Origin: Longimicrobiales bacterium
Lineage (GTDB): Bacteria; Gemmatimonadota; Gemmatimonadetes; Longimicrobiales; Gaopeijiaceae
Length of the DNA: 64,000 nt
Assembly: GCA_965116905.1 (NCBI GenBank)
Contig: OZ220732.1
Location: forward strand, 704,001-768,000
Direction: 5' to 3'
The translations under genes were made by a program, and so were the position numbers. Positions 10,311 to 56,435 of the stretch are shown here, one piece after another. Numbering within the stretch: the first letter of the stretch is position 1; every line of letters begins with the position of its first letter. The notes under the pieces are model-generated. The model was not told where the DNA came from. It saw nothing but the letters and a program-made list of their open reading frames with translations, and ran no database searches.

Positions 10311-10532
10311 TCAGAACTTCTTCCCGCACATGTCATCGTCCAGGCAATTGAATCGGAACATGCAACAGTTGCCGCAGCAGTACGGGTCTCCCGCCACGGT
10401 TTGCTTGCAACAGTGGAAAAGGAAGCCCGAACTGGACGCAGCGGCCGCGGCCTTCGGGGTGGCGAGTGTCAGTGGCAGCAGAGCCGCGTTCGCCGCGACC
10501 GCGAGCAGGATCCATAGGAGTCTCTTTTTCAT
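10311..10532 (-). CDS. Secreted 8-Cys peptide (CC-x9-CC-x2-CC-x5-C-x5-C)
   Basis: Signal peptide MKKRLLWILLAVAANAALL, GGAG RBS, core CCKQTVAGDPYCCGNCCMFRFNCLDDDMC; paralog at 51595. Confidence 0.8.
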   Translation of the reverse strand: MKKRLLWILLAVAANAALLPLTLATPKAAAAASSSGFLFHCCKQTVAGDPYCCGNCCMFRFNCLDDDMCGKKF

Positions 10533-10579
10533 TTGTCGTTCTCCAGTCTGTGCTTAAGGGGTGGATAGCGGTACATCCG

Positions 10580-11128
10580 TCAGAGTGCGTCAATCGCTTC
10601 TATCATCTGTTCCAACCGGCGGCCGTGCCCATCGAAACGAAGCACACCAGCCGAATCAAACACAAAGACCCAAGGCGTCCTGGAAAACAGAGGGTACATC
10701 GGGTCGGCAGGCGTCAGCGCTTCCGAGCTGAGGACATCTACATCCCAACCAAAGCGTTCGGCATAGGCCACCGCCGGCCCCACGGAATCGTTGGTCACCG
10801 CGATTCTCTGCGCGAAAGGTCTGTCGGTCTGGTCGGCAGCGAAGTGCTCCGCCCATTCCGGCGCCACAGCGTGACAGTGCACGCAATCCGGATGGAAGAC
10901 GTACAGGATCGTAGGAATGCCGGCATCGGTAGCGAGTCGAATGGTCGTGGGGACATCGCCTCCGAAGCTCCCCGTCAAGGCGAGCAAGGTGTCCCCGACG
11001 ACCATTTCGGCTGCGGTCGCCGACGGAGAGCCCACTTGCTGAGCCCGACTGACCGCCAGGACAGCCTGGCTGCCGACCCCCGCCACGAGCAAGAACAGCA
11101 ATGCGTTCAGCCAGTGCGTCGTCTTCAC
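10580..11128 (-). CDS. Exported thioredoxin-fold (TlpA/peroxiredoxin-like) protein
   Basis: Signal peptide, YVFHPDCVHC CxxC motif and cis-Pro loop RTPW. Confidence 0.8.
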   Translation of the reverse strand: MKTTHWLNALLFLLVAGVGSQAVLAVSRAQQVGSPSATAAEMVVGDTLLALTGSFGGDVPTTIRLATDAGIPTILYVFHPDCVHCHAVAPEWAEHFAADQTDRPFAQRIAVTNDSVGPAVAYAERFGWDVDVLSSEALTPADPMYPLFSRTPWVFVFDSAGVLRFDGHGRRLEQMIEAIDAL

Positions 11129-11198
11129 GATGAGGCGCCTCTCTGGATGGAGTGCGGTTTGGGCTGCTATACCTCTCCAAACGCAAGAGGGCTGGTCC

Positions 11199-11219
11199 GA
11201 ATACTGTCATTTTCCGACA
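11199..11219 (-). promoter_or_regulatory. Conserved 21-bp upstream motif, copy 1 (TGTCGGRRAATGMCAGTATTC on minus strand)
   Basis: Near-identical copies at 15129..15149 and 23451..23471, each upstream of a minus-strand gene. Confidence 0.55.
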
Positions 11220-11267
11220 CAGGGCCCGGCCATCCCGTCTTTTCGGATTCCCGGCCCGGACCGCCCT

Positions 11268-11771
11268 TCAGTCCTCCTCCATCCAGTCCATCAGCAGTAC
11301 CCTCATCTCCGGCATCTTTCGCAGCTTTGACATCGTCCGGTTGAGGATCGATCGTGCTGCAGATTGGCTCACTCCAATCGTTTCCGCGGTCTGCTTCAGG
11401 TTACGGCCCATGACCCCCCACACCGTCAGAGTGTCGCGCTCGCGGTCGGTAAGCCGGCTCAAGGCGGCTTGCACGATCGGTTGGGCTTCCTCCCGGCGCA
11501 CCTCGTCCAGGGGATCGCACCAATCCGCCGCCACCTCCATGGGGCTCGCCATTGGCACCTCCACTGCTCGAACCCGCTTCTCCGCCCGTAAGGCGTCGAC
11601 ACAGCGGTTCTTGCTGAGGGTGATTGCCCAACGAGCGAACGAACCGTTCCACTTGAACTGATCCAGCCGCTCCAGGATCGCCAGCCAACAGTCCTGGAGG
11701 AGGTCCTGAGCGTCGTCGTCGTCCCTGGCATACGGGCGAATCGCAACCCAGATGCGAGGGCTGAGTTCCAC
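11268..11771 (-). CDS. ECF RNA polymerase sigma factor
   Basis: Region 2 DDAQDLLQDCW...GSFARWAITLSKNRCVD and region 4 LSRLTDRER...AETIGVSQSAARS. The frame continues upstream (DPVDIERL) to an in-frame TGA, so the true start is uncertain. Confidence 0.85.
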   Translation of the reverse strand: MELSPRIWVAIRPYARDDDDAQDLLQDCWLAILERLDQFKWNGSFARWAITLSKNRCVDALRAEKRVRAVEVPMASPMEVAADWCDPLDEVRREEAQPIVQAALSRLTDRERDTLTVWGVMGRNLKQTAETIGVSQSAARSILNRTMSKLRKMPEMRVLLMDWMEED

Positions 11772-23510: not shown

Positions 23511-23744
23511 CTACGACGAGACAACGAAGGAACGATCCGTGCAGAACCCAAAAGCGACCGCAACACCGGAACACGCGCAACCCCTTGGCTTGCTACACTG
23601 CTTGTCTCGAGAAATGCAACTATCGCCGCACGGCTTCCCCGTTCGGCAGACCCGGCAACATGACGTTGTTGGCTCCGTCGTCGTACAGGACGCGGAACCG
23701 AAGACCAACAGCATTGCGAGGGCCACAATGACGGGTGCCTTCAT
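23511..23744 (-). CDS. Small Cys-rich lipoprotein-like peptide
   Basis: AGGAGG RBS, ATG at 23744, lipobox-like GSASC, then CCRVCRTGKPCGDSCISRDKQCSKPRGCAC. Confidence 0.72.
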   Translation of the reverse strand: MKAPVIVALAMLLVFGSASCTTTEPTTSCCRVCRTGKPCGDSCISRDKQCSKPRGCACSGVAVAFGFCTDRSFVVSS

Positions 23745-23880
23745 CAGTCTGGAGCCTCCTGCCGTACGTGAGCGCAATCCGGACATCCGAAGTGTCGGCC
23801 GCCGGCCAGTCGCGCCTGCCTGATATAGACCAGAACCCCCGATTCGCCGGGGCCGCTTCCCCCTATGGACATCACGTACT

Positions 23881-25050
23881 TCAACTAGAGGGCACGGTGT
23901 GCCGCTTTGGATTCGAGACGGCATGGACATCCTCGTCCCGCACGCTCAACCTCGCGATGCGCCAAGGGGGGAAGTCCTTGTTGATCAGCAAGTAGAGAAA
24001 CCGTCCTCCCCCCAGAACCACAGAGTTTTCGGGCAGCGGCACGTCCTGATACAGCCCGGTACCAGTGTGGCGGTCATAAAGGTCAATCAGCACATGAGAC
24101 CACCGGAATGCCGTTCCTTGTGTCGCGTCATAGGTGGCCCTCGTAAACATGAGGTGGCGTTCAACCACATCGATTCGGTGAATGAATTCGAAACTGGCCA
24201 GGAAGTCACCAAACGAGGCGCCGTAGGCCTCGGAGCCCGCGAGAGCGCCTCCCTCCAACACCGGGATCGGCCGAAACGACTCTGAAGGCTCACCAATCAC
24301 GCCCACGGTATCTCCGTCAACGTTGAGGATCGTCGCAGGAAAACGGGCACCCGACATCGCGTAGATGGAGTCACCGCCGACCGCAATCGGCGTTCCCACC
24401 ATCGAACTCCAGTATGGCCTCTCATGTGTGAGGAACGGGTAGTTGAAGCCGCTCCAAGCCAGCTCCGCGCCGATGAGCCGATGAAGGATGGGCGGGCGGC
24501 CGCGCGAATCAAACCATGTTTCGTGATCAGCAGCCCGCGTCATACGTACTATCAGGTCCGGGCCCATCGCGATCACGCTCGTGGCCGGTCCAGGTATTGG
24601 CAACAGTGTGTCCGACTGCAGGTCACTGGTCAGGTAAGTCAGGTTCGACTGCAGAGAGTTCGGTACCACGATTGCGCCGGAAGCCGTTTCGGCAACACTG
24701 TTGATCCAGCGGAATTCGAAAGGACCGTCGCCGAATCTGCCAAACGATGCGACCAATCGACCGTTCTCGGCGTAGCGCCGAATCCTTGGCAGGAGATTGT
24801 CGCCAACAACGAAGCCTCCGTCCCGAAGCTCCGCAAAGGCGCCGATTTCGGCGATGGAATCGCCTGGGTCTTCTTGTAGTTCGATAACGTCCTCGACTTC
24901 GAACACCTGCTCGAAGGTCGCCGAGACCGGCTCCAAGTCGTCCGTGGACTCCGCTGCCTGCCCGCAAGCCACGAGCAGCGACGCAATTGGGATCGCAGAT
25001 AGGCAGCACTGGCGTGCCGGCCCACGACGGTCGTTCAAGACCGACATCAA
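23881..25050 (-). CDS. 6-bladed beta-propeller-type lipoprotein
   Basis: Lipobox LVAC and FGRFGDGPFEF motif. Confidence 0.75.
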   Translation of the reverse strand: MMSVLNDRRGPARQCCLSAIPIASLLVACGQAAESTDDLEPVSATFEQVFEVEDVIELQEDPGDSIAEIGAFAELRDGGFVVGDNLLPRIRRYAENGRLVASFGRFGDGPFEFRWINSVAETASGAIVVPNSLQSNLTYLTSDLQSDTLLPIPGPATSVIAMGPDLIVRMTRAADHETWFDSRGRPPILHRLIGAELAWSGFNYPFLTHERPYWSSMVGTPIAVGGDSIYAMSGARFPATILNVDGDTVGVIGEPSESFRPIPVLEGGALAGSEAYGASFGDFLASFEFIHRIDVVERHLMFTRATYDATQGTAFRWSHVLIDLYDRHTGTGLYQDVPLPENSVVLGGGRFLYLLINKDFPPWRIARLSVRDEDVHAVSNPKRHTVPSS

Positions 25051-25069
25051 GCTCGAGTGTTATCGAAGG

Positions 25070-25312
25070 TCAGTTAACGATGATCTCATCTAGGCAGCAG
25101 ATGTAGTTGTAGGTATCGCAACTATCTCCAACACAACGATAGCGCTGGTTGGGATCACCATAAGCCCCATCCACACAATACTCATCTTCAGCAGGGCAAT
25201 ACCCGTCGCTAGCTCTCACTGGCACAGGCTCTACCGTCGCGTAGGCGATCATCAGCGCTACTGCCAGCGCTGTTGCGCACGCCGCACGCATCCACTTACT
25301 GATGGCGTTCAT
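25070..25312 (-). CDS. Secreted acidic 6-Cys peptide
   Basis: AAGGAG RBS, signal peptide, core CPAEDEYCVDGAYGDPNQRYRCVGDSCDTYNYICC. Confidence 0.78.
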   Translation of the reverse strand: MNAISKWMRAACATALAVALMIAYATVEPVPVRASDGYCPAEDEYCVDGAYGDPNQRYRCVGDSCDTYNYICCLDEIIVN

Positions 25313-41783: not shown

Positions 41784-42065
41784 GTGAAGACACAGAGTTC
41801 GATGGTGCATGTCCGGATGGACACCGAGATGAAACGGAAGGCGACAGAAGCGCTCGCGGCGATGGGCCTGACGGCCTCGGAGGCCGTGCGGCTCCTGTTC
41901 CATCGCATTGCCGTCGACCAGGCGTTCCCGCTCGAACTGAAGGTTCCAAACGCGGAAACGCGAGCCGCCATGGCCGAGATCGACGAAATGGTCAACACGC
42001 GCGCGGCGCGATTCGCGAGCGCGGACGAGCTGTTTGCAGAGCTTGAAGAAGCCTCCGACCGGTAA
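41784..42065 (+). CDS. dinJ: RelB/DinJ-family antitoxin, copy 2
   Basis: Near-identical to 27620..27901. Confidence 0.88.
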   Translation: MKTQSSMVHVRMDTEMKRKATEALAAMGLTASEAVRLLFHRIAVDQAFPLELKVPNAETRAAMAEIDEMVNTRAARFASADELFAELEEASDR

Positions 42066-42369
42066 GCGGGCCAAGCCGCCACGCCGGGTCGACTACTCCC
42101 GAAGGTTCCTGAAGGACTGGAAGCGTCTCTCGCGTTCCGGCCGATACGACATGCGTCGGCTGAAGACGGCCATGCTCATTCTCATCGCCAACGATGCCCC
42201 ACTCGGTCCTGAATGGCGGGATCACGCGCTCAAGGGCTCATGGGCGAGCTACCGGGAATGTCACGTCGGCGGTGACTTCCTCCTCATCTATCGCATTGAC
42301 GATACAGACGGGCCAACCGGCTCCGTTTACTTTGCCCGCGCTGGCACGCATGCCCAGCTGTTCGAATGA
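42034..42369 (+). CDS. yafQ: YafQ-family toxin, copy 2
   Basis: Near-identical to 27870..28205. Confidence 0.88.
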   Translation: MQSLKKPPTGKRAKPPRRVDYSRRFLKDWKRLSRSGRYDMRRLKTAMLILIANDAPLGPEWRDHALKGSWASYRECHVGGDFLLIYRIDDTDGPTGSVYFARAGTHAQLFE

Positions 42370-42456: not shown

Positions 42457-42933
42457 CTATCGGGGCTCAAGCACAATGACATCCACCCCTTCGACATCCT
42501 TGAGGTGGAGTTCGATCAACTTCCTGACGGTAGGCCACTTGAGTTTCCCGAGTCCGCACCCGAGCGCCGGAATGGCGATGGAGTCGATTCCCCGCCATGC
42601 ATCATCCGTTTTCAGGTAGCGAATGAGCTTTGCCAATGTGGCCAGTCCACGTTCCACGTTTTCCAGGCGGCTATTGTCCTTCCAGTGATCCTTGGTCGCA
42701 AAGTTGATGATGTAGCTCGGCCCTTCTCCCTTGTTCTCGTGCACGAACAGGTGACCCGGCTTCATGCTTCCCTCGCGGCACCGCTCCTGGTATTCCTGGA
42801 AGTTCTCCGGAAACCTGTTCTTGAACTGCAGTGCGAGTCCCCGTCCCATGACGCCTCTGCAGTTCACGGAGTTGACCATGGCGTCTACGTCCGGGGCAAA
42901 CGTGAATATGTCACCCTTCTCGACCCTGATCAT
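42457..42933 (-). CDS. Macro domain protein (DarG N-terminal-like)
   Basis: GDIF, VNSVNCRGVMGRGLALQFK, IINFATKDHW and SIAIPALGCGLGKL. Confidence 0.88.
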   Translation of the reverse strand: MIRVEKGDIFTFAPDVDAMVNSVNCRGVMGRGLALQFKNRFPENFQEYQERCREGSMKPGHLFVHENKGEGPSYIINFATKDHWKDNSRLENVERGLATLAKLIRYLKTDDAWRGIDSIAIPALGCGLGKLKWPTVRKLIELHLKDVEGVDVIVLEPR

Positions 42934-43169
42934 GTCTTCATATCCCCCCCGATGTTCAGGACGGGGAAGGCCCCGCCGGTAGCAGCGAATAATAACATGG
43001 CCGCTTTGGCCGGACGGATTGGCGACAAGAGCGAGCGACTGGTACCAGATCGACGAAGTCGAGCGGGTCGAAAAACTGATTGGCGTCCACCCGCGTAGGA
43101 CAACTGACGAACCCGGCAAACGGGCCGGAACGTTCACCCAGCCGACCGCGGCTGAATGGGAGGTGTGTG

Positions 43170-44086: not shown

Positions 44087-45086
44087 TCAACGCCGCGGAT
44101 CCGACAGTCTTGGTTCCAGTAGATGCAGGTACGGCACGCCCTCTTCCGTCTCATGGTAGGCAACGACGTACCGGGAACCCTTTGCGAAGCCGAGCAGGTA
44201 CCCGTCGGTGTGGTGACGGGCGATCGTGAGACCCGTTTCGGGATCGATCAGGTCCACCCATCCGTCGTGTTCGAGACGCGGTGGCACTGTCGCGCTCGGG
44301 GTTCCCGCAGGGCTGCGCCGCGTCCAATCGGGATCCGGAGTGGTCCAAACAAGCCACAATCCATCGGGATCCAGCATGAGCCCCCGGTTCCGCGAGCTGG
44401 GGAACGTATTCCCATCCGGAGCGTCGTCGTCGAAGGCCTTGACCCGCCGCTGGAACTCCCCTGTCAGCCTGGGCCTGGACTCCATGCTCCAGCGGCTCAG
44501 GATGTTGGCATCGGCTCGGATGGTCCAGACGGTGTCCCCTCCATCCCCCGTCAGCTTGTAGGAGGTCGAGGAAGGGCCTCGGTACACGCCGCCTTCGTCG
44601 CCGAAGGACTTCATCTCTCCCGATGGTGTCAGGACGTGGAACCTGTAGCCAACGGCAGTCGGTGTGGGCACGTCCGCGCTGAGCACGACATCATCGGAAT
44701 CCATTACGAAGGTGTCGATTGGCTGGCCCGGGTATTGGTCGATCCTCACGACATCGAAGTCGTAGTCGAGCACCGCCGTCCGCGGCGATGGTCGAAGACG
44801 TGGACTCCGGTTGACGTATGTCGCTGACGATGATCCGGCCCAGGCGGTCGACAGCCACTCTTGAGAAACGAAAAACGACGTGAAGTCCCGGCCCGTCGAG
44901 TCCGCCGATCGTCGCCACCGTGTCGAGCGTGATCCGGCAGGTCGCGCAAGCTACTTCGCCGGACACGAGCTGGCGTTCCTGCGCTGGCAGCGGCGGCGGC
45001 GCGGCGTGCAGGCCGAGTAAAGCGAGGAGGCAGGGGGCGATCATCATGCGACTGCAGCGCGGTCGAAAGCGCTCTCGGAAACTCAA
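44087..45086 (-). pseudogene. Beta-propeller-type secreted protein, frameshifted near 44800
   Basis: ORF 44691..45086 (signal, CATCRITLDTVATIGG) and ORF 44087..44773 (C-terminal part ending ETEEGVPYLHL) are in different frames. Confidence 0.65.
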
Positions 45087-45282
45087 CTTCGTGCCTCCCC
45101 TCGTCGCTGCTTGCTTACCGGAAGGCTCATCCTACTGAACGATGTCTTGGCCATGTCAGGTTTGAGCGGGTCAGACGGCGTTGGGCGTAGGGCTGGTCGC
45201 AAAGCTCCGACGCGTCGCGTTGCGCGATCCCCGGGTTGACCACTCCGGACAGGGTGCTCAAAGACCGGAGGCCGTCGTTGCC

Positions 45283-47031
45283 CTAGGACGCTTGGCCCGC
45301 AACAACCCGACTAACCACCGCCCTCGGGACGTCCAGCTCATCAGTACGGCGCAACAAGACGACATCTCCCTTCGCGTCGAGTAGCCGTTCATCGGCGTCC
45401 AGCCTGACTCTGAAGAGCGCCGTGGCCGGCTCCAGGTCCCATGCGCGCCACGTCACACTGTCCTGATCGGTGAAGTGGTAGTCGCGCACCCAGAGCCTCT
45501 TGTCGAAGTCGATGAAGACCGAATCGATCGGCGGTGCCAGTTCATTCGCCGGCCACAGGTTCATCGCCAAGGGGGACGCGTCGACGGCGGCCATCTCCTC
45601 TTCGGACCAGACCGTGCTCAGCAACTCGGCGTGCCTGGACGGCATTGCAGCCATGTACTCGCGCGCCACGCGCAGCTGATTCGCCGACACGCGAGTCGGC
45701 GGCGGCATCGGGATGCGGCCGACCTCGCTGCCGTCCCACCTGAACACTTGGATGGCTTCCTGATCGGTCTCGGCAATGACGAAATGATCTGCGGAGGCAG
45801 CCATCAACGACCGGTGCCCGAAAAGTACGCCGCCGCTGGCGTCAGTTCCGTAGTAGTGCTCGTAGCCCTTGGTCTGGGCGACGATCTCAAGTTTACCTTC
45901 GTCGTTCACAGCAACATACTCGACCGAGTCCCATGTCCGCCCCCGGAAGTCCCCGAAGGCCCTGGATTCCGAGTCACCGAACACAATGCGACCGTCCCGA
46001 TGAACCGCTACCGGGGGCACAGATAGCGAGCCTTTGAATGGGACAGCCTGATAGCTCAGGTCGCGCAGAAAGGCACCGTCGTGGTCAAGCGACACGACGC
46101 GACGCCGGAGTATGTCCCAGAGCGCGATGCCCTGCGGACCACGCAAGGCACGGGAGATGCGGCCGAATTCGCGTGGGCCGCCACCCTCCCTGCCGAAACC
46201 CCGGATCTCTCCCGATGCCATGTTCACGAAGTGGACTTCGGTCCGCTCCACCAATGCCAATCCATCGCCGGGAAGGAAGAATCCGGCGGTAATGAAAGAC
46301 AACGCGTCGGCCAAGTCCGGATGTTCCGATGTGTCGAAAGTCGATACGCCGGGAACCAGAAGCTGGACCCCGGGGTCTGGCGCGCCGGCAACGGCCGCTA
46401 CGGCAGCCGCCAAGTCCCCTGGGTGCAACGCTCTCTCCGAGACAAAGGTAGGAGTTCCAGGGATCTCAAGGATGCTCGCCAGAGCCACGTCTCGCGCCAG
46501 ACGATTCTGGCTCTCGTCGCCACCCATGCAGGCGACGTACGACCGAAAGTCGCTGATCCCCAAGCTCTGTGCGAAGCGAGTCCAATCCCGATCGTCGAGC
46601 CATGTCTGATCGGCAAGCAGCGATTCGTGGGCCTCCCGAAACAGCCCGAATTTCTCGGCGCAAATGGCAGCCAAGGCGGCTTCAGTGGCGGCAGCCCCAC
46701 CGTTTGACGGGACATGCCGTACGACCACAGTGAGGTCCTCCTGGCTCACAGCCTCCAACACGGCTGGCGCCAATCTTCGGCACACCTCGCACTCGTAGTC
46801 GATGAACTCTACGATGACGCCTCCTGAGGAGGACTGTCCGAGGCGGCTTGGTGCTTCCACCAAAGTGTTCCAGTTGCGAGAGACTCGGCGCTGCTCGTCC
46901 CACCCGCGGTACGTTGAGCCAATCCACCGCCCGACCACACCGGACGGATTCAGTAGCAGGAACGCGAGAGTAACGACTATCGCAATGTTGGCGACCCGGT
47001 TCCAGCGGTCGCGCTTGTCTCGGTCACTCAC
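45283..47031 (-). CDS. DsbA/thioredoxin-domain protein fused to a beta-propeller domain
   Basis: TM anchor, IVEFIDYECEVC, AALAAICA, IPGTPTF, then FGREGGGPREF and RRTDELDVP. Confidence 0.82.
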   Translation of the reverse strand: MSDRDKRDRWNRVANIAIVVTLAFLLLNPSGVVGRWIGSTYRGWDEQRRVSRNWNTLVEAPSRLGQSSSGGVIVEFIDYECEVCRRLAPAVLEAVSQEDLTVVVRHVPSNGGAAATEAALAAICAEKFGLFREAHESLLADQTWLDDRDWTRFAQSLGISDFRSYVACMGGDESQNRLARDVALASILEIPGTPTFVSERALHPGDLAAAVAAVAGAPDPGVQLLVPGVSTFDTSEHPDLADALSFITAGFFLPGDGLALVERTEVHFVNMASGEIRGFGREGGGPREFGRISRALRGPQGIALWDILRRRVVSLDHDGAFLRDLSYQAVPFKGSLSVPPVAVHRDGRIVFGDSESRAFGDFRGRTWDSVEYVAVNDEGKLEIVAQTKGYEHYYGTDASGGVLFGHRSLMAASADHFVIAETDQEAIQVFRWDGSEVGRIPMPPPTRVSANQLRVAREYMAAMPSRHAELLSTVWSEEEMAAVDASPLAMNLWPANELAPPIDSVFIDFDKRLWVRDYHFTDQDSVTWRAWDLEPATALFRVRLDADERLLDAKGDVVLLRRTDELDVPRAVVSRVVAGQAS

Positions 47032-47067
47032 GCATCAAGCCTGACGTCGATGGATCACGATGGTCAA

Positions 47068-47265
47068 CTACTCTTCGGGGCATTTTATCCCAGACCCGCG
47101 TGCGTGGCCGATTGGACACACCCATGCGATGCATTCGTCGTCCGTACATGTCATGCAGCCACTGGTGTGGGTCTTGCAATCCTTTTGCTGAGCGTGGACA
47201 GGCTTCGCTTCCATTGAGAGCAGGCCAACCAGGAGCAAGCCGAGGATCTGGAGGGTGCGGTTCAT
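47068..47265 (-). CDS. Secreted 6-Cys peptide (65 aa)
   Basis: AGGAG RBS, ATG at 47265, signal peptide ending VHA, core CKTHTSGCMTCTDDECIAWVCPIGHARGSGIKC. Confidence 0.78.
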   Translation of the reverse strand: MNRTLQILGLLLVGLLSMEAKPVHAQQKDCKTHTSGCMTCTDDECIAWVCPIGHARGSGIKCPEE

Positions 47266-47313
47266 GGGGTTTCTCCTTCTGCGTTGGTGGGGATGGACAT
47301 CCCACTGGTTACC

Positions 47314-47690
47314 GAGTGGCGACTCTCGCCCCTCTATATATCTGACAGTTCTCGCGGCGGAAATGTGCAATCGGGCTGCGAACGACCCCCGATCACCGCA
47401 GGTCAGTTCCTCCCCCGGTGAGCGCTCGGGCCACCTCGGCAAGGCCGGCGCCATGACCATCGGTCACGACCCGCCCCTCCTGGTCCAGCGCGACTATCCA
47501 TGGGGTCCGTCGCGCCAGAATGGCGGCCTCCGGCTCCCCTGCAGGGTGCTCCAGGGACAGAACGTCAACGGGCCAACGGTGCTCCCTTGCGAAGTCGATC
47601 GCATCGGCCAGGGTCCCGTCAGGGTGCCTCACGGGAACTGACGACAGATTGTAGCCAATCGGAATCGGGTCGGCCTCGCGCCGCGCCTTC
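47314..47690. repeat. Diverged duplicate of 50650..51160 with a 150-bp internal deletion
   Basis: Long near-identical stretches from gagtggcgactctcgcccctctat to gcatcggccaggg, then a jump to tcccgtc. Confidence 0.9.
47338..47370 (-). promoter_or_regulatory. Putative ECF promoter TTGCAC-N17-TGTCA, site A
   Basis: Minus strand ttgcacatttccgccgcgagaactgtcagata upstream of peptide gene 47265. Confidence 0.6.
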
Positions 47691-47704
47691 CGGTCTCCAA
47701 TCAA
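47393..47704 (-). pseudogene. Truncated copy of the thioredoxin-fold gene lacking signal and active-site segment
   Basis: Matches 50739..51299 except for 50 missing residues including FDPDCAHT. Confidence 0.8.
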
Positions 47705-47724
47705 CTCCAGGTTATCACAACAAT

Positions 47725-48933
47725 TCAGCTGAACGGTACCAGTCTGCGTCCCTGGACCTGTCCGGCGAACCGTCTGTCTACGTGCAGTCCCCAGACATGC
47801 GTGGACGTAGCATCGCGAAGCATGAATTGTTCCGGCAAAAGGACGCGACGTGGTGGCGACTTTGGCTGCGCGCGGTCGATGGCATACCAGACGGCCATCG
47901 AGTCGTTCGGTTCGTTACTTCGAAGCCATACTTCGTTTGACGCTGTTGCCACAACAGCGGTAACGGGTGGCAGGTGATCGGGAATGTGGAGGGCCGCTTC
48001 GACCAGGTCATGGAGAGTCGAAGTCGCCAGAGAGTCGTCGCTCGACCGCAGCCTTCGAGATATGCTTTGCATGTGCGACGCGACGACCGTCTCGACGCGC
48101 TCCCGGTCCAGAAGCGACAACGGCAACTGTAGTCGTGCTTCTAGCACGGTATCTTGGCCCGGCACCACCTCGACCACCCCGACCTCGCCTGTACCCATGT
48201 TCCTGTTCACGATTCCCACCGCACCCGCCTGCCGGTTCCAGTACATCAAGTCATGATCGGCAAATGGCTGGCCGGAGAACACCTGGTTTCGACGCACCGA
48301 GATGCCCAAGGTCCGCCCGGAAGAGTCAAACATGGCCACCGTATCGGCCACCCATTCATCGTCGGCCAGCCGAAGATGCGCCGCAGCAACCTGCCAACCG
48401 GGGTGTCCCAACTCCCAGCTGAACACCCGGTGCGGAAAGGGAAACCGCCCGCGGGCAAGCAGGGTCCCATCGCCGAGAACTACGATACCCCCCTGGAGCC
48501 ATTGGTCGGGCGGGCTTCGCATCGTCCGCACAAGACGACCATCGAGCAGGAATCGCCCAAACCCGCGATCATATTGGACCCAAAGCCCGGTCGAATCCAG
48601 CTGGACGTTTCGAGGGTTACCCAATTGTGCGACATCGTCTCGAGGCCACAATTCCAACACGGGCTCACCCAAGTGACGCGAATCCCAAACCGTGACCCTG
48701 CGAGGCTGAAGGACAGCGATCATGGTGCCGGTGCTGGTGGAGCGCACGTTCTGTAGAAACGGCAACGCGTTATCGGTCCCCGGCTCTCCTCCGATGACCT
48801 TGTCGTATTGCGTTGACCAGTCCTGTGGTACAGCACGGGCATTTGCCTCAACAGGCTTCCCAACACCGATGGTGTAGAACAATGCGGCAAACCAGAGCCA
48901 CATGAGGCGTCCCGTTGTTCCTTTGCCGATCAA
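47725..48933 (-). CDS. Divergent beta-propeller-type secreted protein
   Basis: Signal peptide; C-terminus EVWLRS...WYAID...RRVLLP resembles the neighbour 48930..50171. Confidence 0.7.
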   Translation of the reverse strand: MIGKGTTGRLMWLWFAALFYTIGVGKPVEANARAVPQDWSTQYDKVIGGEPGTDNALPFLQNVRSTSTGTMIAVLQPRRVTVWDSRHLGEPVLELWPRDDVAQLGNPRNVQLDSTGLWVQYDRGFGRFLLDGRLVRTMRSPPDQWLQGGIVVLGDGTLLARGRFPFPHRVFSWELGHPGWQVAAAHLRLADDEWVADTVAMFDSSGRTLGISVRRNQVFSGQPFADHDLMYWNRQAGAVGIVNRNMGTGEVGVVEVVPGQDTVLEARLQLPLSLLDRERVETVVASHMQSISRRLRSSDDSLATSTLHDLVEAALHIPDHLPPVTAVVATASNEVWLRSNEPNDSMAVWYAIDRAQPKSPPRRVLLPEQFMLRDATSTHVWGLHVDRRFAGQVQGRRLVPFS

Positions 48934-50171
48934 TCCGGATCCCCAGTGTGGCGAACCAATAGGCGGCCAACCACATAGCGTACGTCAAAGGAATCGAATC
49001 GGGTGCCCCACAGAACGGATTCAGTAGCGTCGAAAGGCAGAAAGGTAGCTGGCAACAGGACTCGTCGTACGGCAGAGGCAGAGTCCCGCGCAACTCCGAC
49101 CTGTACCGCATACCATACGTCCAGCGAATCAGCACCCGCGTCTTCGTACGTCCTCATCCACATCTCACCGTTGGACAGTAATGCCATGTTACGGACGGAC
49201 GGATAGTTCTCGGGCACGTACAAAGCCTCTCGAACGGCCCTTCGTGCGTCGGCCAGGAGCGCATCTGACCTCCGGTTCGCTATGGTCGTGGCGACGTTCT
49301 CGACGAGCTCTTCCACTTCTTGCACCGGCAGGGCAATGGGTGGGAACCGTAGACTTCGGAACCAAACGGTATCGCCGTCCGCTGACAGCTCCGTCAAATG
49401 GACCACCCCTGGATCCAGGCCTCTTTGTCGGGTGACGACGACCGTCTTCGACCACGAATTATAGCTTGCTTGGTCAGTGTCTCGGTATGGTTGCCGCGAG
49501 AACGAGGTCAGGCCGGAACTCTGATCGTTCTTGCCAGTCGCAAGAATCTCGTTTCGAACATCAAGCATCGTCAGGACATCAACCGTCCAAGCGCCGTCCT
49601 GTTCCCTCAGACGGACGACGGGCAACTCCACCACCGGATCGTCACCCCACCATCCAGACATGTAATCCGGTGAAACGCTGGGATAGGCCAAAAAGCTACC
49701 GTCGTCAAGCAAGAGTGCGGGGCGAAATCGGAATCCGCGATGGCTCACGGAAAGGGGTATGGACACCGTGCGCAGGTATTCTCCGTCAGGCGAGAACAGG
49801 ACGAAGCGATCCCGGTCACGCACCTGGAATCCATCAGATGTGACCTGGACTCGATCAGGGCGTCGGAACTCTCCCGGTCCCTGTCCTTCGCCTCCGACCG
49901 AAAACAGGGGTGAACCGTCAGGCGTCCAGACGGTCACCCGAAGATCACTGGGATCGACAACGTAGACCCGGGTTCCCTCATCCCCCAGGCCGACATCAGA
50001 TACCCTGGTGAAGGCAGCGTCTGTTCCGTGCAGGCTGCCTATTTCATACCGTGGCACCGTGACCCATGTATCGACGGCGTCAAGGAATTCCGGCGGTGGA
50101 TCGTCACCGCACCCATAACCTGCGGCAAGGACCGAGGCAACGATCCACCACCGCCGGAAACCGAACGTCAC
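48930..50171 (-). CDS. 6-bladed beta-propeller-type lipoprotein
   Basis: Lipobox GYGC, VGGEGQGPGEF and C-terminal LWGTRFDSFDVRYV. Confidence 0.8.
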   Translation of the reverse strand: MTFGFRRWWIVASVLAAGYGCGDDPPPEFLDAVDTWVTVPRYEIGSLHGTDAAFTRVSDVGLGDEGTRVYVVDPSDLRVTVWTPDGSPLFSVGGEGQGPGEFRRPDRVQVTSDGFQVRDRDRFVLFSPDGEYLRTVSIPLSVSHRGFRFRPALLLDDGSFLAYPSVSPDYMSGWWGDDPVVELPVVRLREQDGAWTVDVLTMLDVRNEILATGKNDQSSGLTSFSRQPYRDTDQASYNSWSKTVVVTRQRGLDPGVVHLTELSADGDTVWFRSLRFPPIALPVQEVEELVENVATTIANRRSDALLADARRAVREALYVPENYPSVRNMALLSNGEMWMRTYEDAGADSLDVWYAVQVGVARDSASAVRRVLLPATFLPFDATESVLWGTRFDSFDVRYVVGRLLVRHTGDPD

Positions 50172-50175
50172 GCCG

Positions 50176-50622
50176 CTAGCCTAGCTTAAGCGCACTGCCC
50201 GGAAGAACTCCGTCGGAGCCTTGGGCCACGACAAACCCGACCAACGAGCCACCGCACTTCTTCCGGACGAGAAGCCGGCCGCCTTGAGTGGCCACGAAGT
50301 AGGGAGTGTCAGCGGGCAAGATGCCGCCGTCTGCCACTAGTGCGAGGACTTCCTGCGTGGCAGCTTCTTCCTCGACCGGCGAGAGCGCGAATCCTCCACA
50401 CAGCTCGGAACCCTCGTCCGGGAGACACATGCCTCGACCCTCGACGGGACCCGCGCCGACCGCGCATTTGGAGAATCCGTATTTGTCGTCCTCCTGATCG
50501 TCGCAGAGGTCGGTGTCCAGGTCGCAGGTATAGCACTGCGCCATGGCGGGCGTTCCGCCAAAAGCGATTCCCATTAATGGAAATCCGACCATCACCATCG
50601 CGGCCAAGAGTTTCCTTTTCAT
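50176..50622 (-). CDS. Secreted protein with N-terminal acidic 6-Cys module (148 aa)
   Basis: GGAGG RBS, ATG at 50622, signal ending AMA, then CYTCDLDTDLC...C...C...C and a C-terminal extension. Confidence 0.78.
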   Translation of the reverse strand: MKRKLLAAMVMVGFPLMGIAFGGTPAMAQCYTCDLDTDLCDDQEDDKYGFSKCAVGAGPVEGRGMCLPDEGSELCGGFALSPVEEEAATQEVLALVADGGILPADTPYFVATQGGRLLVRKKCGGSLVGFVVAQGSDGVLPGSALKLG

Positions 50623-50672
50623 ACTGCTACCTCCGTAGCTGTGGGATTCGAGTGGCGACTCTCGCCCCTCTA

Positions 50673-50706
50673 TTAACTTGACAGTTCTCACGGCGGAAAT
50701 GTGCAA
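50673..50706 (-). promoter_or_regulatory. Putative ECF promoter, site B
   Basis: Minus strand ttgcacatttccgccgtgagaactgtcaagttaa. Confidence 0.6.
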
Positions 50707-50738
50707 TCCGGATGCGGACGACCCCCGATCACCGCAGA

Positions 50739-51299
50739 TCAGCTCCTTCCCCCGCTGAGCACTCGAGCCACCTCGGCAAGGCCGGCGCCATGACCATCGG
50801 TCACGACCCGCCCTTGCTGGTCCAGTGCGATTATCCATGGCGTCCGTCGCGCCAGAATGGCGGCCTCCGGCTCCCCTGCAGGGTGCTCCAGCGACAGAAC
50901 GTCAACGGGCCAACGGTGCTCCCTTGCGAAGTCGATCGCATCGGCCAGGGGGCCCAACGAAATCGCTAGAAGGCGATATCGTTCGGCCTCCTTGCCGGCA
51001 AGCCAGGAAGACCAGGCTGGCGCAACACGACGTGTGTGGGCGCAGTCAGGATCGAAGACGAGGAGCAGGGTGGGCTGGCCCGCCCCCAACTCGGCCGGGG
51101 TCCCGTCGGGGTGCTTCACGGAAACTGACGACAGATCGTAACCGACTGGAATCGGCTCAACTCGCGAATCGGCATCCCACATCGCGGCACTCAGGATCGC
51201 CACCTGGCCAATCGCCGACGCAGCCAAGACCGTGGTGAACGAGTGGCTGCGCCAGGCTCGTCCAAGCGGCAGCCTCCGGCTTTCGGCGCTGTTCGCCAT
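50739..51299 (-). CDS. Membrane-anchored thioredoxin-fold protein (CxxT)
   Basis: LLVFDPDCAHT and RTPWIIALD...DGHG; paralog of 10580..11128. Confidence 0.8.
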   Translation of the reverse strand: MANSAESRRLPLGRAWRSHSFTTVLAASAIGQVAILSAAMWDADSRVEPIPVGYDLSSVSVKHPDGTPAELGAGQPTLLLVFDPDCAHTRRVAPAWSSWLAGKEAERYRLLAISLGPLADAIDFAREHRWPVDVLSLEHPAGEPEAAILARRTPWIIALDQQGRVVTDGHGAGLAEVARVLSGGRS

Positions 51300-51358
51300 G
51301 AGATGTCTGCTCCAAGTGATCCAAGGCCGAATCCGGTCGATTTACCTCGGCCGTCCAT

Positions 51359-51391
51359 TTAACTGACAGTTCTCGCGGCCCAAATGTGCAA
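51359..51391 (-). promoter_or_regulatory. Putative ECF promoter, site C
   Basis: Minus strand ttgcacatttgggccgcgagaactgtcagttaa upstream of 51299. Confidence 0.6.
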
Positions 51392-51495
51392 TGCACCGTT
51401 CCACAGGGGTGGGTCGCGGGTGCGCTGGCCAGCGCGGTCAGGGTCGTGCCGGGTCGCGTGGAGGGCTCGGTCCGAGTCGGCGCCGACCACGCCAA

Positions 51496-51528
51496 TTGCA
51501 CTTTTCTGCTCTGAGAACTGTCAGTTAA
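51496..51528 (+). promoter_or_regulatory. Putative ECF promoter, site D
   Basis: ttgcacttttctgctctgagaactgtcagttaa upstream of peptide gene 51595. Confidence 0.6.
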
Positions 51529-51594
51529 TAGGAACCCGCGAGTTTCGATTCACTACATCAGGGGCCGTCAGGTCCCGAAACGGAGGGACGAACG

Positions 51595-51792
51595 TTGCGA
51601 ACGATCAGGGTGGTCCTTATCCTGCTCAACCTCGTGTTGGCGGCGGCTTTACTGACGCAGGCGAGCGCGGCGCGTTCGACCGACGCCATGCGCACTTGCT
51701 GCCGGGGCGATGGTCCGGAAGCGTACTGTTGCTATGGCTGCTGCTGGCTCTTTTCAAATTGCGACAGGAGCAGCGACTGCCAGGACGGGTGA
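51595..51792 (+). CDS. Secreted 8-Cys peptide (CC-x8-CC-x2-CC-x5-C-x5-C)
   Basis: GGAGG RBS, TTG start, signal peptide, core CCRGDGPEAYCCYGCCWLFSNCDRSSDC. Confidence 0.8.
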   Translation: MRTIRVVLILLNLVLAAALLTQASAARSTDAMRTCCRGDGPEAYCCYGCCWLFSNCDRSSDCQDG

Positions 51793-51831
51793 ACAGCGGA
51801 AACGGCTCTCCAGAGGGACACGACGGCGACG

Positions 51832-52674
51832 ATGGCGGAAACAAATCGCGGCTACGCAGCCTGGATGGGCCCGGTCGCGAGAGCGATGTGGCCCTGGTGT
51901 TTGCTCTTCATCGTCGGCAAGCCGCTGTTGGAACTGAGGCGGCCGCCGTATGAGTGGTCGGTAAGCTCCCTGAGGTGGCTGTGGGGTGTCACCGAGGACG
52001 CCGCGTTGGCTCTCCCGTTCCTGATCTTCGCGGGTGGCGTGGCGCTGGTTCGGGTGCTGGGAGACTCCCGCCGCCTCGTACGGACGGCGGTGGCTGTCGG
52101 ACTCTCAGCGGGTGCAGTCACATATGCCTTGGGCGCGTGGGTCGCTCCGGAGGTACACAGTCGATTTCTGGCTGCTCTGGATCCCGAAACCGTGGATTTG
52201 CGCCAGTTCGGGCCGAGAACCCCGCCCGGCATCGTGGAGAATCTGCGGTTCGTGGAGGCAAACCCTCCCGGGGAGTACACCCTGAACGTAGGGGCCCCAC
52301 ACAGGTTCCCGCCGAGCGTGCTCCGTTGGGAGCTGCATCGCCCTCCCGCCATGGCGGTGTTCGCCGTCATCAACGTGCTTCTGGGTGTGCTGGCCGCAAA
52401 GCTGACCCTCGAACTCAGTCGTCGGGCGCAGCGGAACGCTCGACTCGCGATCGGTGTGTTCGGCGGGATCGCTTTCTTCGCGTGTCTCGCGGCGGCATCT
52501 CCCGTGGAGCCCTTTCTTCGCGATGGCACCATGCGATCGGGTGTCCTCGGTGCCTGGGTGCCGTTGGCCTTCCCGTTGGCACAGACGTTGGTGCTCGTGC
52601 ACCTGCTGCGCCGACGGGAGCACCGCCACCCCAACACACGGCCGGCCGAGTCGTTCGGTAGAGGACCGATGTGA
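51832..52674 (+). CDS. Multi-pass membrane protein
   Basis: About six hydrophobic helices; lies between the peptide gene and the ECF sigma gene. Confidence 0.7.
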   Translation: MAETNRGYAAWMGPVARAMWPWCLLFIVGKPLLELRRPPYEWSVSSLRWLWGVTEDAALALPFLIFAGGVALVRVLGDSRRLVRTAVAVGLSAGAVTYALGAWVAPEVHSRFLAALDPETVDLRQFGPRTPPGIVENLRFVEANPPGEYTLNVGAPHRFPPSVLRWELHRPPAMAVFAVINVLLGVLAAKLTLELSRRAQRNARLAIGVFGGIAFFACLAAASPVEPFLRDGTMRSGVLGAWVPLAFPLAQTLVLVHLLRRREHRHPNTRPAESFGRGPM

Positions 52675-52704
52675 GTCCCGCAACAGCACAGTCCGTGGGC
52701 TTCG

Positions 52705-53253
52705 ATGAGTGAATCGAAACGGCCCGACTTCGACGGTGTTCGGGAAGCGCTACAGCGCTTTGGACCCCTCATCGAGACGGTCGCCGAAAAATATGCGGAA
52801 GATGGCGATGACCAGGATGACATATACCAGGAGATTTGTGTCCGCATCGCGAAGCGTCTACACCAGTACGAAGGCAAGGGCGCGCTGGGTGGTTGGATCC
52901 AGAAGCTGGCACATCGTGTCGGCTTGAATTGGTGGAACGGGCGCACGGCCCACGAGGAGCGGCTGGAACGATACGAAGCGGAGATGCTGCCGATGGACCT
53001 TGCTGAGTCCCTGATCGACAACCCGGAGAAGCTGTTCGACTACAAGGAATTCCTCCAAGGCCTGGGACACGTGCTCACCCGCCTCCCGGAACGACAGTCG
53101 GATGTGATGATCTTGATCCACCTGCACGGGCTCAGTTTTCCTGAGGTGGCGAAGATCCTGAAGTCGAAGGAATCCACGATCCGATCTCATCATCGGCACG
53201 CCAGAAGGAATCTTCGGAGGATGCTGGGAGATGGAAATGATGACTTGCCCTGA
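52705..53253 (+). CDS. ECF RNA polymerase sigma factor
   Basis: DDQDDIYQEI...GALGGWIQKLAHR and LTRLPERQ...GLSFPEVAKIL...STIRS. Confidence 0.88.
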   Translation: MSESKRPDFDGVREALQRFGPLIETVAEKYAEDGDDQDDIYQEICVRIAKRLHQYEGKGALGGWIQKLAHRVGLNWWNGRTAHEERLERYEAEMLPMDLAESLIDNPEKLFDYKEFLQGLGHVLTRLPERQSDVMILIHLHGLSFPEVAKILKSKESTIRSHHRHARRNLRRMLGDGNDDLP

Positions 53254-53686
53254 CTACATGGTGCTGGCCCGCACGGACTTGCGTAATGCCGACCCGGAGT
53301 TGGTCGAGCACCTGAAAACCTGTCCATCGTGCTGGCTCGACTGGCAGATTCTGCACGGTCTGCGTCACGTGTTGGACCCCCAGAGACCGGTTCGAGCCGA
53401 TCTGAACGAGCGGGTGATCGCCAGGCTGGCCCTGAGCGCAGCGCAGCTGGAGAGGACGCTGCGGTGGCAGGATCTCACGATGTCCGCGGTGCTGGTCGTG
53501 GTTGCGACGGGCGTCTTTTTTCTGGCGACCGATACTGCGGGCTCGGTTGTGTCCGTCTCCACGGCGCTCTACGTGATCGTGGCAGGTCTCGCGGCGGCGC
53601 TGTACGTGAAACGTGAAGACCGTAACGAACGCGCGGTGGCATTGGCGGCGGCGGGGGTGGTGATTCCGGAGGATGGCGATCAGTGA
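53231..53686 (+). CDS. Zinc-binding anti-sigma factor (ZAS-type) with two TM helices
   Basis: EHLKTCPSC (H-x3-C-x2-C); overlaps the sigma factor stop. Confidence 0.8.
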   Translation: MEMMTCPDYMVLARTDLRNADPELVEHLKTCPSCWLDWQILHGLRHVLDPQRPVRADLNERVIARLALSAAQLERTLRWQDLTMSAVLVVVATGVFFLATDTAGSVVSVSTALYVIVAGLAAALYVKREDRNERAVALAAAGVVIPEDGDQ

Positions 53687-54658: not shown

Positions 54659-55212
54659 ACGAATCCGAAGCCAGCGGAACCCTCGGGGAGCAGGGGGGCA
54701 GACAGGTCCTGCAATTCAGGCGATTCCTCGGGCACTCGCGCGAGCGCGTTTGGCGCGCCATCACATCCGAGAGCGAGCTGTCCGCGTGGTTCCCGGCTCG
54801 CATGACGGGAGACCGCAAGGTGGGTGCGGCCCTCCGTTTCGTGTTTCCGCCCGAGCCCGGTCAGACACCCTCAGACTCGGACGAAGAGGGATTGGTGATG
54901 ACAGGTGAGATGCTGGTTTGCGATGCACCCAATGTGCTCGAATACCGGTTGGACGCGGACGTGCTGCGATGGGAACTTGAGGAAAGCCCTGGGGGCACGC
55001 TACTCACGTTCACGCACACCTTCGACGAAAAGGGGCGGGCGGCGCTGTATTCCGCTGGCTGGGATCACTGCCTCGCATCGCTGGAGGCACGGCTTGGCGG
55101 GGATCCGGTCGAGCCCTTCACGCGGGAGCGCCACGACCAACGGTTCGCCCACTATGCACGTCGGTTCGGGCCGGATGGGGCGGTACATCGGTCTGCGGAG
55201 ACACAGACATGA
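54655..55212 (+). CDS. SRPBCC (AHSA1-like) family protein
   Basis: ERVWRAIT...LSAWFP, GTLLTFTH and AGWDHCL; ATGA overlap with the ArsR gene. Confidence 0.85.
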   Translation: MNESEASGTLGEQGGRQVLQFRRFLGHSRERVWRAITSESELSAWFPARMTGDRKVGAALRFVFPPEPGQTPSDSDEEGLVMTGEMLVCDAPNVLEYRLDADVLRWELEESPGGTLLTFTHTFDEKGRAALYSAGWDHCLASLEARLGGDPVEPFTRERHDQRFAHYARRFGPDGAVHRSAETQT

Positions 55213-56435
55213 TCCGCAGCGTCCGACCTGGCAGCTCGATCCTGTGTGCGGTGAGCGTTCTGACCGCCGGATGCGACCGCTCCGCGCACCCTGGACGTGA
55301 TTTCGTCGTACGGGACAGCGCGGGCGTGACGATCGTAGAGAACCGACGTCCACAGCCGGGGCTGCGACTCGGATGGCGGATTGGCTTGGCCCCGTCACTC
55401 TCCATCGGCGGCGCCACGGATAGTCCCGCACACGAGCTGTTCAACGTGACCGACGCCACCAGGCTCGCGGACGGTACCATCGTGATTGCCGACGCCGGGT
55501 CAGGTGAGTTGCGAGTTTTCGACGCGTCCGGGGCCCATCGTGCATCGTGGGGTGGCCGGGGCGAGGGTCCCGGCGAGTTCGGCAGCGCAGCGCCATCGAC
55601 GGTCGGACCCTGGCCCGGCGACTCGCTCGCGGCGTCGGACACCTTCGCGAGGCGGGTCTCCGTGTTCGGCAGCAATGGCGAACACGGCCGCACCTTCGTA
55701 CTGGAGTCTCCTTACTACCGCCTGCGTGGCGTGCTCCGCGACGGCAAGATGTTCCTCGGGAACGGTTCCACTTTGGCGTCCGCAGTTGTCGGCACCGGTG
55801 TGGCCCGCCGAGAAATCGCATACGGCATCGCGCGGCCGGACGGGGGCCTGTACAAGGCGCTCGGGACACGTCCCGGCGAGGAGTGGTATGTCGTATCCGA
55901 GAGCCAGGGGATGGCCGTGTACCCCCAGCCGTTTGCCCGCTCAACCGTGACGGCCGTGTGGGGGGACCTGGTTGTGATCAGCCCGAACGCTCGCTACGAG
56001 TTGCAAGCATATGACGCCGGCGGGGCACTGGCGATGCTCGTGCGACGCGATCACGACCCGCGGAGTCCGACCGGAGCCGATGTTGACGAGCACCTACAGC
56101 AGCTATACGCAGACGCCTCCGAGGAGGAGCGGGCGTCCGCGCTGGCCGACCTGCGCGACATGCCGCGCGTGGAGACCTTCCCCGCATTTGGCCGTATTCT
56201 GGCCGATCGTCTGGATCATCTCTGGGTGGAGGAATACCCGTTGCCCGGCAACACTGATGGATCGACTCGGGTGTGGACCGTATTCGGCCCCAACGGGCGC
56301 ATGCTCGGTCAGGTCGAAACCCCGGTCGGACTGAGAATCTTCGAGATCGGGGCAGACTACATCCTTGGGTCGATGGCCGATGACCTCGGGATCGAGTCTG
56401 TCCAGCTCTGGTCGCTCGACCGCGACGAGTCCTGA
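55209..56435 (+). CDS. 6-bladed beta-propeller-type lipoprotein
   Basis: Lipobox TAGC, VRDSAGVTIVEN, GGRGEGPGEF and EIGADYILG...DDLGIESV. Confidence 0.82.
   Translation: MIRSVRPGSSILCAVSVLTAGCDRSAHPGRDFVVRDSAGVTIVENRRPQPGLRLGWRIGLAPSLSIGGATDSPAHELFNVTDATRLADGTIVIADAGSGELRVFDASGAHRASWGGRGEGPGEFGSAAPSTVGPWPGDSLAASDTFARRVSVFGSNGEHGRTFVLESPYYRLRGVLRDGKMFLGNGSTLASAVVGTGVARREIAYGIARPDGGLYKALGTRPGEEWYVVSESQGMAVYPQPFARSTVTAVWGDLVVISPNARYELQAYDAGGALAMLVRRDHDPRSPTGADVDEHLQQLYADASEEERASALADLRDMPRVETFPAFGRILADRLDHLWVEEYPLPGNTDGSTRVWTVFGPNGRMLGQVETPVGLRIFEIGADYILGSMADDLGIESVQLWSLDRDES

Follow-up and report, generated by a model that had tools for sequence, protein, structure and literature searches.

What holds together an array of small cysteine-rich peptide genes, propeller genes and thioredoxin-fold genes around an extracytoplasmic function (ECF) sigma factor and its anti-sigma factor? 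The question is raised by positions 44087-53686 of a 64,000-nt stretch of a Longimicrobiales genome (hereafter the window; G000:C1:704001-768000, from the 4.21-Mb single-contig genome G000). A first-pass annotation made from the sequence alone had proposed that a scaffold and promoter stay constant here while peptide and propeller vary, and every gene that it named is present where it was placed. We put at about even chances the reading that the locus is a conserved regulatory socket with exchangeable gene pairs, forming a sigma-controlled export-and-display system.

The constant part is a core made up of a one-cysteine thioredoxin-fold gene, divergent putative promoters, an eight-cysteine peptide (peptide C), a membrane protein of LptF/G fold, an ECF sigma factor and a zinc-binding anti-sigma (ZAS) factor. 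The membrane gene was matched in 30/37 genomes of the genus and in 0/24 genomes from two other families of the order. We collected 39 core loci from 40 stretches fetched around membrane-gene matches, some of which end at contig ends; sigma and anti-sigma genes were present in all 39, a propeller in 37, peptide C in 32, the thioredoxin in 26 and a DsbA gene in seven. A phylum sample of 301 genomes yielded the membrane protein in 22 and peptide C in 17, with nearly all finds in the organism's own family, and the taxonomic labels on named homologues of the thioredoxin and of the leftward peptide B are Gemmatimonadota. The core occurs three times in G000 itself, and a further, variant module lies at 10311-11771 (−), in which an ECF-like sigma gene, a thioredoxin with intact CxxC and a peptide C homologue were recognised, while the membrane gene and the promoter-like motif were not found.

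The rightward operon of the core opens with peptide C (51595-51792, +; CC-x8-CC-x2-CC-x5-C-x5-C). This peptide had been taken for one of the variable cassettes; it is instead a conserved core component, present in most core loci (see above) and with all eight cysteines kept in 30/30 aligned members. The membrane protein (51832-52674, +), the sigma factor (52705-53253, +) and the anti-sigma factor (53231-53686, +) follow. The ECF sigma factor, of 182 aa, consists of regions 2 and 4 only and matches PF04542 (Sigma70_r2), PF08281 (Sigma70_r4_2) and TIGR02937 above cut-off. The membrane-anchored anti-sigma factor has the arrangement C-x20-H-x3-C-x2-C, with C6, H27, C31 and C34 invariant in 33/33 aligned homologues, and two hydrophobic, predicted transmembrane (TM) helices, so that the ECF/ZAS pair of the first-pass annotation holds. 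The H-x3-C-x2-C signature, together with a fourth ligand, is the ZAS definition given in PMC4598750, which also cautions that most ZAS zinc is structural.

Structure prediction returned an all-helical, multi-pass model without strands for the membrane protein (predicted local distance difference test score, pLDDT, 88). This predicted model aligned to LptG (6mit_G) with Z 15.9 and a root-mean-square deviation of 4.2 over 235 residues, against Z 6.9 for the next unrelated fold, and PF03739 gave sub-threshold matches in 4/26 distant homologues. The protein thus resembles the six-helix type VI ATP-binding cassette transmembrane domain of LptF/LptG; it differs in lacking the beta-jellyroll, in its length (280 aa versus about 355), in being a single gene and in having no recognised ATPase gene alongside. 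Its homologues, counted as clusters at 50% identity, number 123. In seven distant loci (L206, L207, L208, L209, L210, L217 and L218) the membrane gene, an ECF sigma gene and a long propeller open reading frame (ORF) are consecutive; no ZAS anti-sigma, peptide C or motif was found in them.

On the leftward side, the first gene of the core (50739-51299, −) encodes a membrane-anchored thioredoxin-fold protein (TM 21-39). The label of thioredoxin was right as to the fold; in an alignment of 26, the window copy reads C-A-H-T and has no CxxC. Active sites in 37 copies read C-x-x-S (27), C-x-x-T (seven) or CxxC (one), with two unparsed, and the profile weakly matches protein disulfide isomerase and thioredoxin-like structures.

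Each of the four transcription units of the array has in front of it a copy of a promoter-like motif, ATTGCAC-N11/12-GAGAACTGTCA: the thioredoxin gene (51364-51392, −), the peptide C-membrane-sigma-anti-sigma operon (51495-51523, +), peptide B (50679-50707, −) and peptide A (47343-47371, −). The 29-nt consensus, TTGCAC(G)TTT-N7-GAGAACTGT(C/T)A, always faces its gene. Using a matrix built from 60 sites of other genomes and a cut-off of 18 bits, we detected 11 sites in G000, compared with none in a 2-Mb Markov control and none in the reversed genome, and 8/11 lie in core or cassette modules. With one mismatch allowed, the motif is present in 38/53 genomes of the genus against one control match in total. 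In the set of 37 genomes scored for motif and core alike, it occurs in 28/30 that bear the core and in 0/7 that do not, a co-occurrence to be read with the relatedness of the genomes and the derivation of the pattern from core-proximal sites in mind. In being bipartite, with a GTY that lies 18 nt after TGCAC, the motif resembles ECF promoters. A sigma-54 reading was rejected by eye, no conserved GG element being seen upstream, and scans for sigma-70 promoters and terminators gave results at chance level. The ECF sigma factor likely transcribes all four units from this common motif and would then also regulate its own gene.

Downstream of the thioredoxin gene, the motif forms part of what we call the socket. 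Nine socket copies were aligned, and identity extends across the 3′ end of the thioredoxin gene (in eight copies), the motif and a short leader, after which homology stops abruptly; where a start codon comes next, it lies about 20-60 nt further on. Two copies lie in the window (copy 1, 50649-50707, −; copy 2, 47313-47371, −), and in copy 1 the junction falls at ~50649. A contig from an unrelated run (X4, labelled sponge metagenome) is ~88% identical over 50649-50966 and diverges at that same position 50649, as seen in one contig of depth 2.6. What stands beyond the junction differs between genomes: the six orthologous intact sockets hold peptide B (this genome, G061 and G062), an unrelated six-cysteine peptide (G034), a four-cysteine peptide (G001) or, in G029, an ECF gene with propellers and peptides behind it, while the thioredoxin was not found at a seventh orthologous locus (G033). 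Remnant sockets hold peptide A (this genome) or another four-cysteine peptide (G062). The proposal of a constant scaffold and promoter with changing peptide and propeller is thereby borne out at orthologous sites, and cassettes are likely exchanged by recombination within the shared thioredoxin end, promoter and leader.

Both leaders in the window can also form a hairpin (50649-50672 and 47313-47336, −; GGCGA-GAG-TCGCC in copy 1), which is a perfect 9 bp in some relatives and ends at the cassette junction; it could be a message stabiliser or a crossover mark.

The cargo of socket copy 1 is peptide B (50176-50622, −), a 148-aa product with a signal-like N-terminus, a hypervariable six-cysteine head and a conserved tail. 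The gene described earlier as a six-cysteine protein is indeed there, with a seventh mature cysteine in the tail. Peptide B was matched in 24/53 genomes of the genus, and all seven cysteines, and only these residues, are invariant in 30/30 aligned members (35 pairs less five, of which four are split or truncated and one has its partner fused). A propeller directly follows 36/38 ORFs of the family, two of which are pieces of one split gene; these loci were gathered by peptide B matches and the genomes are kin. In the window the partner propeller (48930-50171, −; lipobox-like Cys21) is succeeded by a second propeller of the cassette (47725-48933, −), which falls in the same clade.

The pairing extends to the propeller phylogeny. 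A tree of 271 propellers places all 35 neighbours of peptide B inside one clade of 52 (support 1.0); this requires nine changes on the tree compared with a mean of 33.4 and a minimum of 30 in 300 shuffles, and 11 of the 17 remaining clade members are additional propellers from those operons. Peptide families of smaller size, with two pairs each, likewise match their own propeller clades. The nearest PDB matches of the partner propeller are NHL structures (1e-17 over about 95 residues); it scores 18.1 bits against DUF5128 (PF17170; gathering cut-off 22.9), and the propellers as a whole match DUF5128 or NHL models only below cut-off.

An iterative search of G000 recovered about 113 ORFs of one propeller superfamily, so any claim about neighbourhoods needs a control. 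An ordinary stress-sigma locus could have collected unrelated propeller paralogues and decayed duplicates by chance in such a propeller-rich genome, and the array does contain two broken genes. Yet 13 of 31 candidate signal-peptide cysteine-rich ORFs lie within 1.5 kb of a propeller, compared with 75/728 small genes (p 1e-5; the candidates come from a home-made gene caller and some are false), the pairing is fixed across genomes and all parts are under purifying selection. We regard chance assembly as highly improbable and largely refuted by the pairing data. The statistical association between peptides and propellers that the first-pass annotation called for is accordingly there, and its check for co-variation finds pairing at family level, both in the peptide B clade and in a second cassette type, that of peptide A.

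Peptide A (47068-47265, −), the cargo of socket copy 2, is 65 aa long, with a signal-like N-terminus and a six-cysteine mature part. Homologues occur in 16/53 genomes of the genus at E≤0.1. All 11 matches at E≤2e-4 are followed by a DsbA-propeller fusion, which is split in two cases and cut off by a contig end in a third; of the two weaker matches inspected, one is followed by such a fusion and one is not. The fusion in the window (45283-47031, −) is membrane-anchored (TM 16-34), and its DsbA-like domain (CEVC) matches PF13462 and PF01323 above cut-off. One contig of run X2 (depth 2) skips window positions 45164-47211, which hold the DsbA-propeller gene and most of peptide A; this may be a strain variant or possibly an artefact.

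The two decayed genes flank this cassette. Upstream of socket copy 2 lies the 3′ part of a thioredoxin gene (47393-47704, −), recognised by tblastn and by a 203-nt stretch that is 96% identical to the intact gene; about 50 codons including the active-site cysteine have been deleted, and no cysteine is left. The last gene of the array, a six-bladed propeller at 44087-45047 (−; pieces 44691-45047 and 44087-44773), is broken by a 109-nt deletion relative to an intact 384-aa homologue in L031, so the earlier label of propeller remnant stands. We rejected an assembly error as the cause of the break: runs X1 and X2 show an extra base at 44775, which does not restore the frame because of the 109-nt deletion. 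In G034, the intact homologue of the broken gene stands on the other side of the core, behind a motif of its own.

How, then, do the two halves of a cassette relate to each other? Within the peptide B set, median identity is 38% for the propeller and 32% for the tail but 16% for the non-cysteine positions of the head, and pairs whose propellers are ~70% identical have heads that are only ~30% identical. The ratio of non-synonymous to synonymous polymorphism (pN/pS) over five close pairs reaches 0.49 in the head but stays at 0.31 in the propeller and 0.26 in the tail, values that indicate real genes with quicker change in the head. Prediction of a complex between peptide B and its partner propeller gave an interaction score (interaction prediction score from aligned errors, ipSAE) of 0.83, compared with 0.00 for the best control, using a 30-row alignment per protein and unrelated proteins rather than other propellers as controls; the score mark applied, which is rough here, is reached by 116/157 solved complexes and 2/215 mismatched pairs. 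Runs share at least 78% of contacts, with partner pLDDT at least 59. The most certain contacts join tail residues 73-86 to propeller residues 112-121 and 139-150, and the motif S-x-[YHFW]-x-G-[FYW] at 112-121 is present in 29/35 partners, compared with 3/17 other members of the clade and 3/219 propellers outside it; it has been lost in the window's second propeller (47725-48933). The model supports binding of peptide B to its partner propeller and, with the contacts on the constant part, the tail seems to be a docking handle that leaves most of the variable head free.

These data bear directly on the resemblance to polymorphic effector-immunity pairs noted in the first-pass annotation, under which an exported cysteine-rich peptide would harm competitors and the downstream propeller would neutralise it. 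As described in PMC3482391, polymorphic toxin systems share with this locus the arrays of two-gene cassettes, the small gene followed by its partner, the constant upstream part, the remnants and an exchange inferred to run through common upstream sequence, and the tight predicted complex and the one-to-one partnering by an adjacent gene (36/38 for peptide B, 11/11 for peptide A) fit as well. In those systems, however, what is exchanged is the 3′ toxin tip of a gene whose N-terminal trafficking body stays constant, and here it is whole genes, each with its own start and signal peptide, behind a promoter. The variable part of peptide B is moreover N-terminal and the conserved tail C-terminal, and different cassettes share no coding 5′ part. 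Scans of Pfam, NCBIfam and PHROGs found no match to a toxin family, the modelled contact runs through the conserved part, and heads with 30% identity accompany propellers with 70%. The peptides are also acidic (median net charge from the first cysteine −7 for peptide B, −3 for peptide C and −5 for the others, with ≤8% of the peptides positive), which argues against pore-forming cationic peptides. An interface on the conserved tail and on a partner-typical motif, rather than on the variable head, favours display or carriage over toxin and immunity; the effector-immunity idea is weakened, and we judge it unlikely.

The DsbA-propeller fusion fits a different end point, namely that a cassette serves maturation: the propeller, as a chaperone or modifying enzyme, would grip a follower-like tail, a thiol oxidoreductase would set the disulfides and the head would be released as a secreted product. 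The leader/follower logic of ribosomally synthesised and post-translationally modified peptides also combines a conserved tail with a variable core. Methylamine dehydrogenase pairs a disulfide-rich light chain with a propeller heavy chain, and a tryptophan pair of the light chain provides its tryptophan tryptophylquinone (TTQ). According to bioRxiv 10.64898/2026.03.05.709764, its six disulfides need MauD. The mau cluster resembles our array in having a small exported cysteine-rich protein, a propeller and a dedicated thioredoxin-fold protein. Only 1/26 of our thioredoxin-fold proteins matches the MauD model TIGR02661, weakly (E 8e-4), and 34/37 have C-x-x-S/T in place of the CxxC of MauD. No conserved tryptophan pair is present (only cysteines are invariant in peptide B, and peptide C has no invariant tryptophan), neither MauE nor MauG was recognised in the core, and the small protein here is hypervariable. 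No conserved site at which the head could be cleaved from the tail is evident in the alignment, the core has no recognised protease or exporter, and peptides A and C have no separate tail. We consider maturation with release rather improbable; its sole real difference from the display reading is whether the head ends up free or displayed.

The sigma module invites yet another interpretation, private signalling, in which the peptides would be secreted as signals and sensed by the propellers as receptors, with a positive loop running through the membrane protein and anti-sigma factor. Peptide C, the membrane protein, sigma and anti-sigma appear to be co-transcribed behind the motif, and the membrane gene-ECF-propeller trios of the seven distant loci, which are without an anti-sigma gene, would fit. 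Cassettes of peptides A and B, by contrast, mostly have no sigma module or motif nearby, and three of the genomes with peptide B (G008, G016 and G017) are ones in which core and motif were not found. For the system as a whole we regard signalling as very unlikely; for peptide C alone it may apply.

We return to the display reading and its proposed mechanism. Each cassette would make a disulfide-rich mini-protein, likely exported (presumably through Sec), whose disulfide formation the DsbA domain and the one-cysteine thioredoxin, as isomerase or chaperone, would aid. The mini-protein would dock through its constant tail on its own propeller, as predicted for peptide B, and the propeller would hold out the variable head, either within the envelope or on the cell surface. 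Cassettes would be replaced at the socket, and peptide C with the LptF/G-fold protein may act as the sensing input to the anti-sigma factor. As a best guess, the heads bind a non-self ligand, on the surface of a host, phage or competitor. Sequence and comparison establish the gene content, the oriented motif, the sharp junction with different cargo beyond it, the fixed pairing, the invariant cysteines and the faster change of the head.

Several results weigh against this reading. Sigma-driven expression and promoter activity of the motif are themselves deduced from sequence. Three of the 11 strong motif sites face no recognisable cassette (two lie just past propeller genes, one of these antisense, and one has no labelled neighbour), and the motif stands upstream of only 3/37 other peptide B ORFs and 0/12 other peptide A loci; because most cassettes stand without a socket, the link to the sigma factor is one of local capture. 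A lipobox was seen in only 17/36 partner propellers, using a crude pattern. The head pN/pS is below 1, and no positive or diversifying selection was detected in the five pairs. The pairing by clade could arise from co-inheritance alone. Modelled on its own, peptide B is mediocre (pLDDT 66). The complex model also has some head contacts (4-8 and 30-40), and head and propeller similarity are correlated (Mantel r 0.37, 20 non-redundant pairs), for which reasons a cognate component in the binding of peptide B to its propeller is possible.

We also compared the locus with other known systems. SigR/RsrA and SigW/RsiW (PMC4598750) share the H-x3-C-x2-C with a fourth cysteine, SigR has a thioredoxin-fold gene in its regulon, as is likely here, and RsiW has a membrane anchor. 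The anti-sigma factor here differs in its two TM helices and almost complete lack of an outer domain, and its operon differs in the co-transcribed eight-cysteine peptide and LptF/G-fold protein and in a likely regulon of exchangeable cassettes. Umbrella toxin UmbA lectins (PMC13274773) are likewise diversified exported modules, some of them six-bladed propellers, that recognise varied targets. In that system the propeller itself is what varies and binds, on a toxin particle, whereas in ours it is the better conserved of the two partners, and neither a trypsin-like nor a toxin component was recognised. A fold search with the pLDDT 66 model of peptide B returned no match at E≤0.001, and the leads from the Atlas were all under 0.9. 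Six proteins searched against PHROGs gave no match (0/6), and Pfam and NCBIfam assign only the sigma factor, the DsbA domain and, below cut-off, the propellers. In Bacteroidales, small cysteine-containing NVEALA proteins (PF14055), six-bladed DUF5128-type propellers and TlpA-like thioredoxin folds reportedly adjoin one another. None of 60 peptides scanned matched PF14055: 0/30 peptide B and 0/30 peptide C members matched any Pfam family at E 0.01, and peptide A matched none at E 0.05.

Our literature search found no description of a peptide-propeller socket system, in keeping with the suggestion that it is undescribed; supplements, where a matching ECF group might be placed, lay outside that search. 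Term look-ups in PMC7826278 (ECF reclassification), PMC10469786 (Palauibacterales) and PMC12426817 (sponge peptides) returned no passage on a propeller. The system appears to be undescribed, a judgement based on the differences set out above and on absence from the literature searched, not on function.

Other peptide sets were observed in the same genome. A six-cysteine peptide (25070-25312) precedes a propeller (23881-25050) and a ten-cysteine small lipoprotein-like ORF (23511-23744) in the window (23511-25312, −); of its two paralogues elsewhere in the genome, one stands directly before a propeller of the same clade. Three tandem four-cysteine peptides with C-x3-4-C-x4-5-CC ends lie within 1.2 kb of a propeller at G000:C1:3178673-3179471 (−). 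Five tandem signal-peptide ORFs of 95-111 aa with four cysteines each, at G000:C1:3900342-3901963 (−), have a hydrophobic Gly/Ala-rich C-terminus and lie more than 20 kb from any propeller; they belong to a different system, which we take to be bacteriocin-like. At L049:13846-16652 (+), the array behind a core includes a CxxC thioredoxin-like gene, a propeller and a small protein of 13 cysteines whose signal is Tat-like; together they look like a methylamine dehydrogenase light-chain set.

The array is bordered on the left by a gene pair at 41784-42369 and a gene at 42457-43137, which by eye we take to be an antitoxin-toxin-like pair and a macro-domain-like gene, respectively. An intact propeller gene lies 1.5 kb to the right of the core (55209-56435, +), and no peptide or motif was found before it.

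Most tentatively, the array would be a diversified-binder system, in which swapped, disulfide-knotted mini-proteins are clipped by their tails to propellers, their heads recognise host, phage or competitor surfaces, and peptide C with a repurposed LptF/G-fold protein forms a new sensor for a zinc anti-sigma factor; we hold this fuller version to be possible but doubtful. The interface (tail 73-86 on the S-x-Y-x-G-F motif), the promoter motif and the junction offer direct targets for testing. For the LptF/G fold, a jellyroll-less member next to a sigma/anti-sigma pair would represent a new use. If the proposed system is real, a defined promoter socket would let these bacteria exchange variable, disulfide-rich mini-proteins, each on a propeller dedicated to carrying it, and keep a natural library of them. 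The large, unexplained propeller expansion of the genome would thereby gain a role, as might similar neighbourhoods in other phyla.

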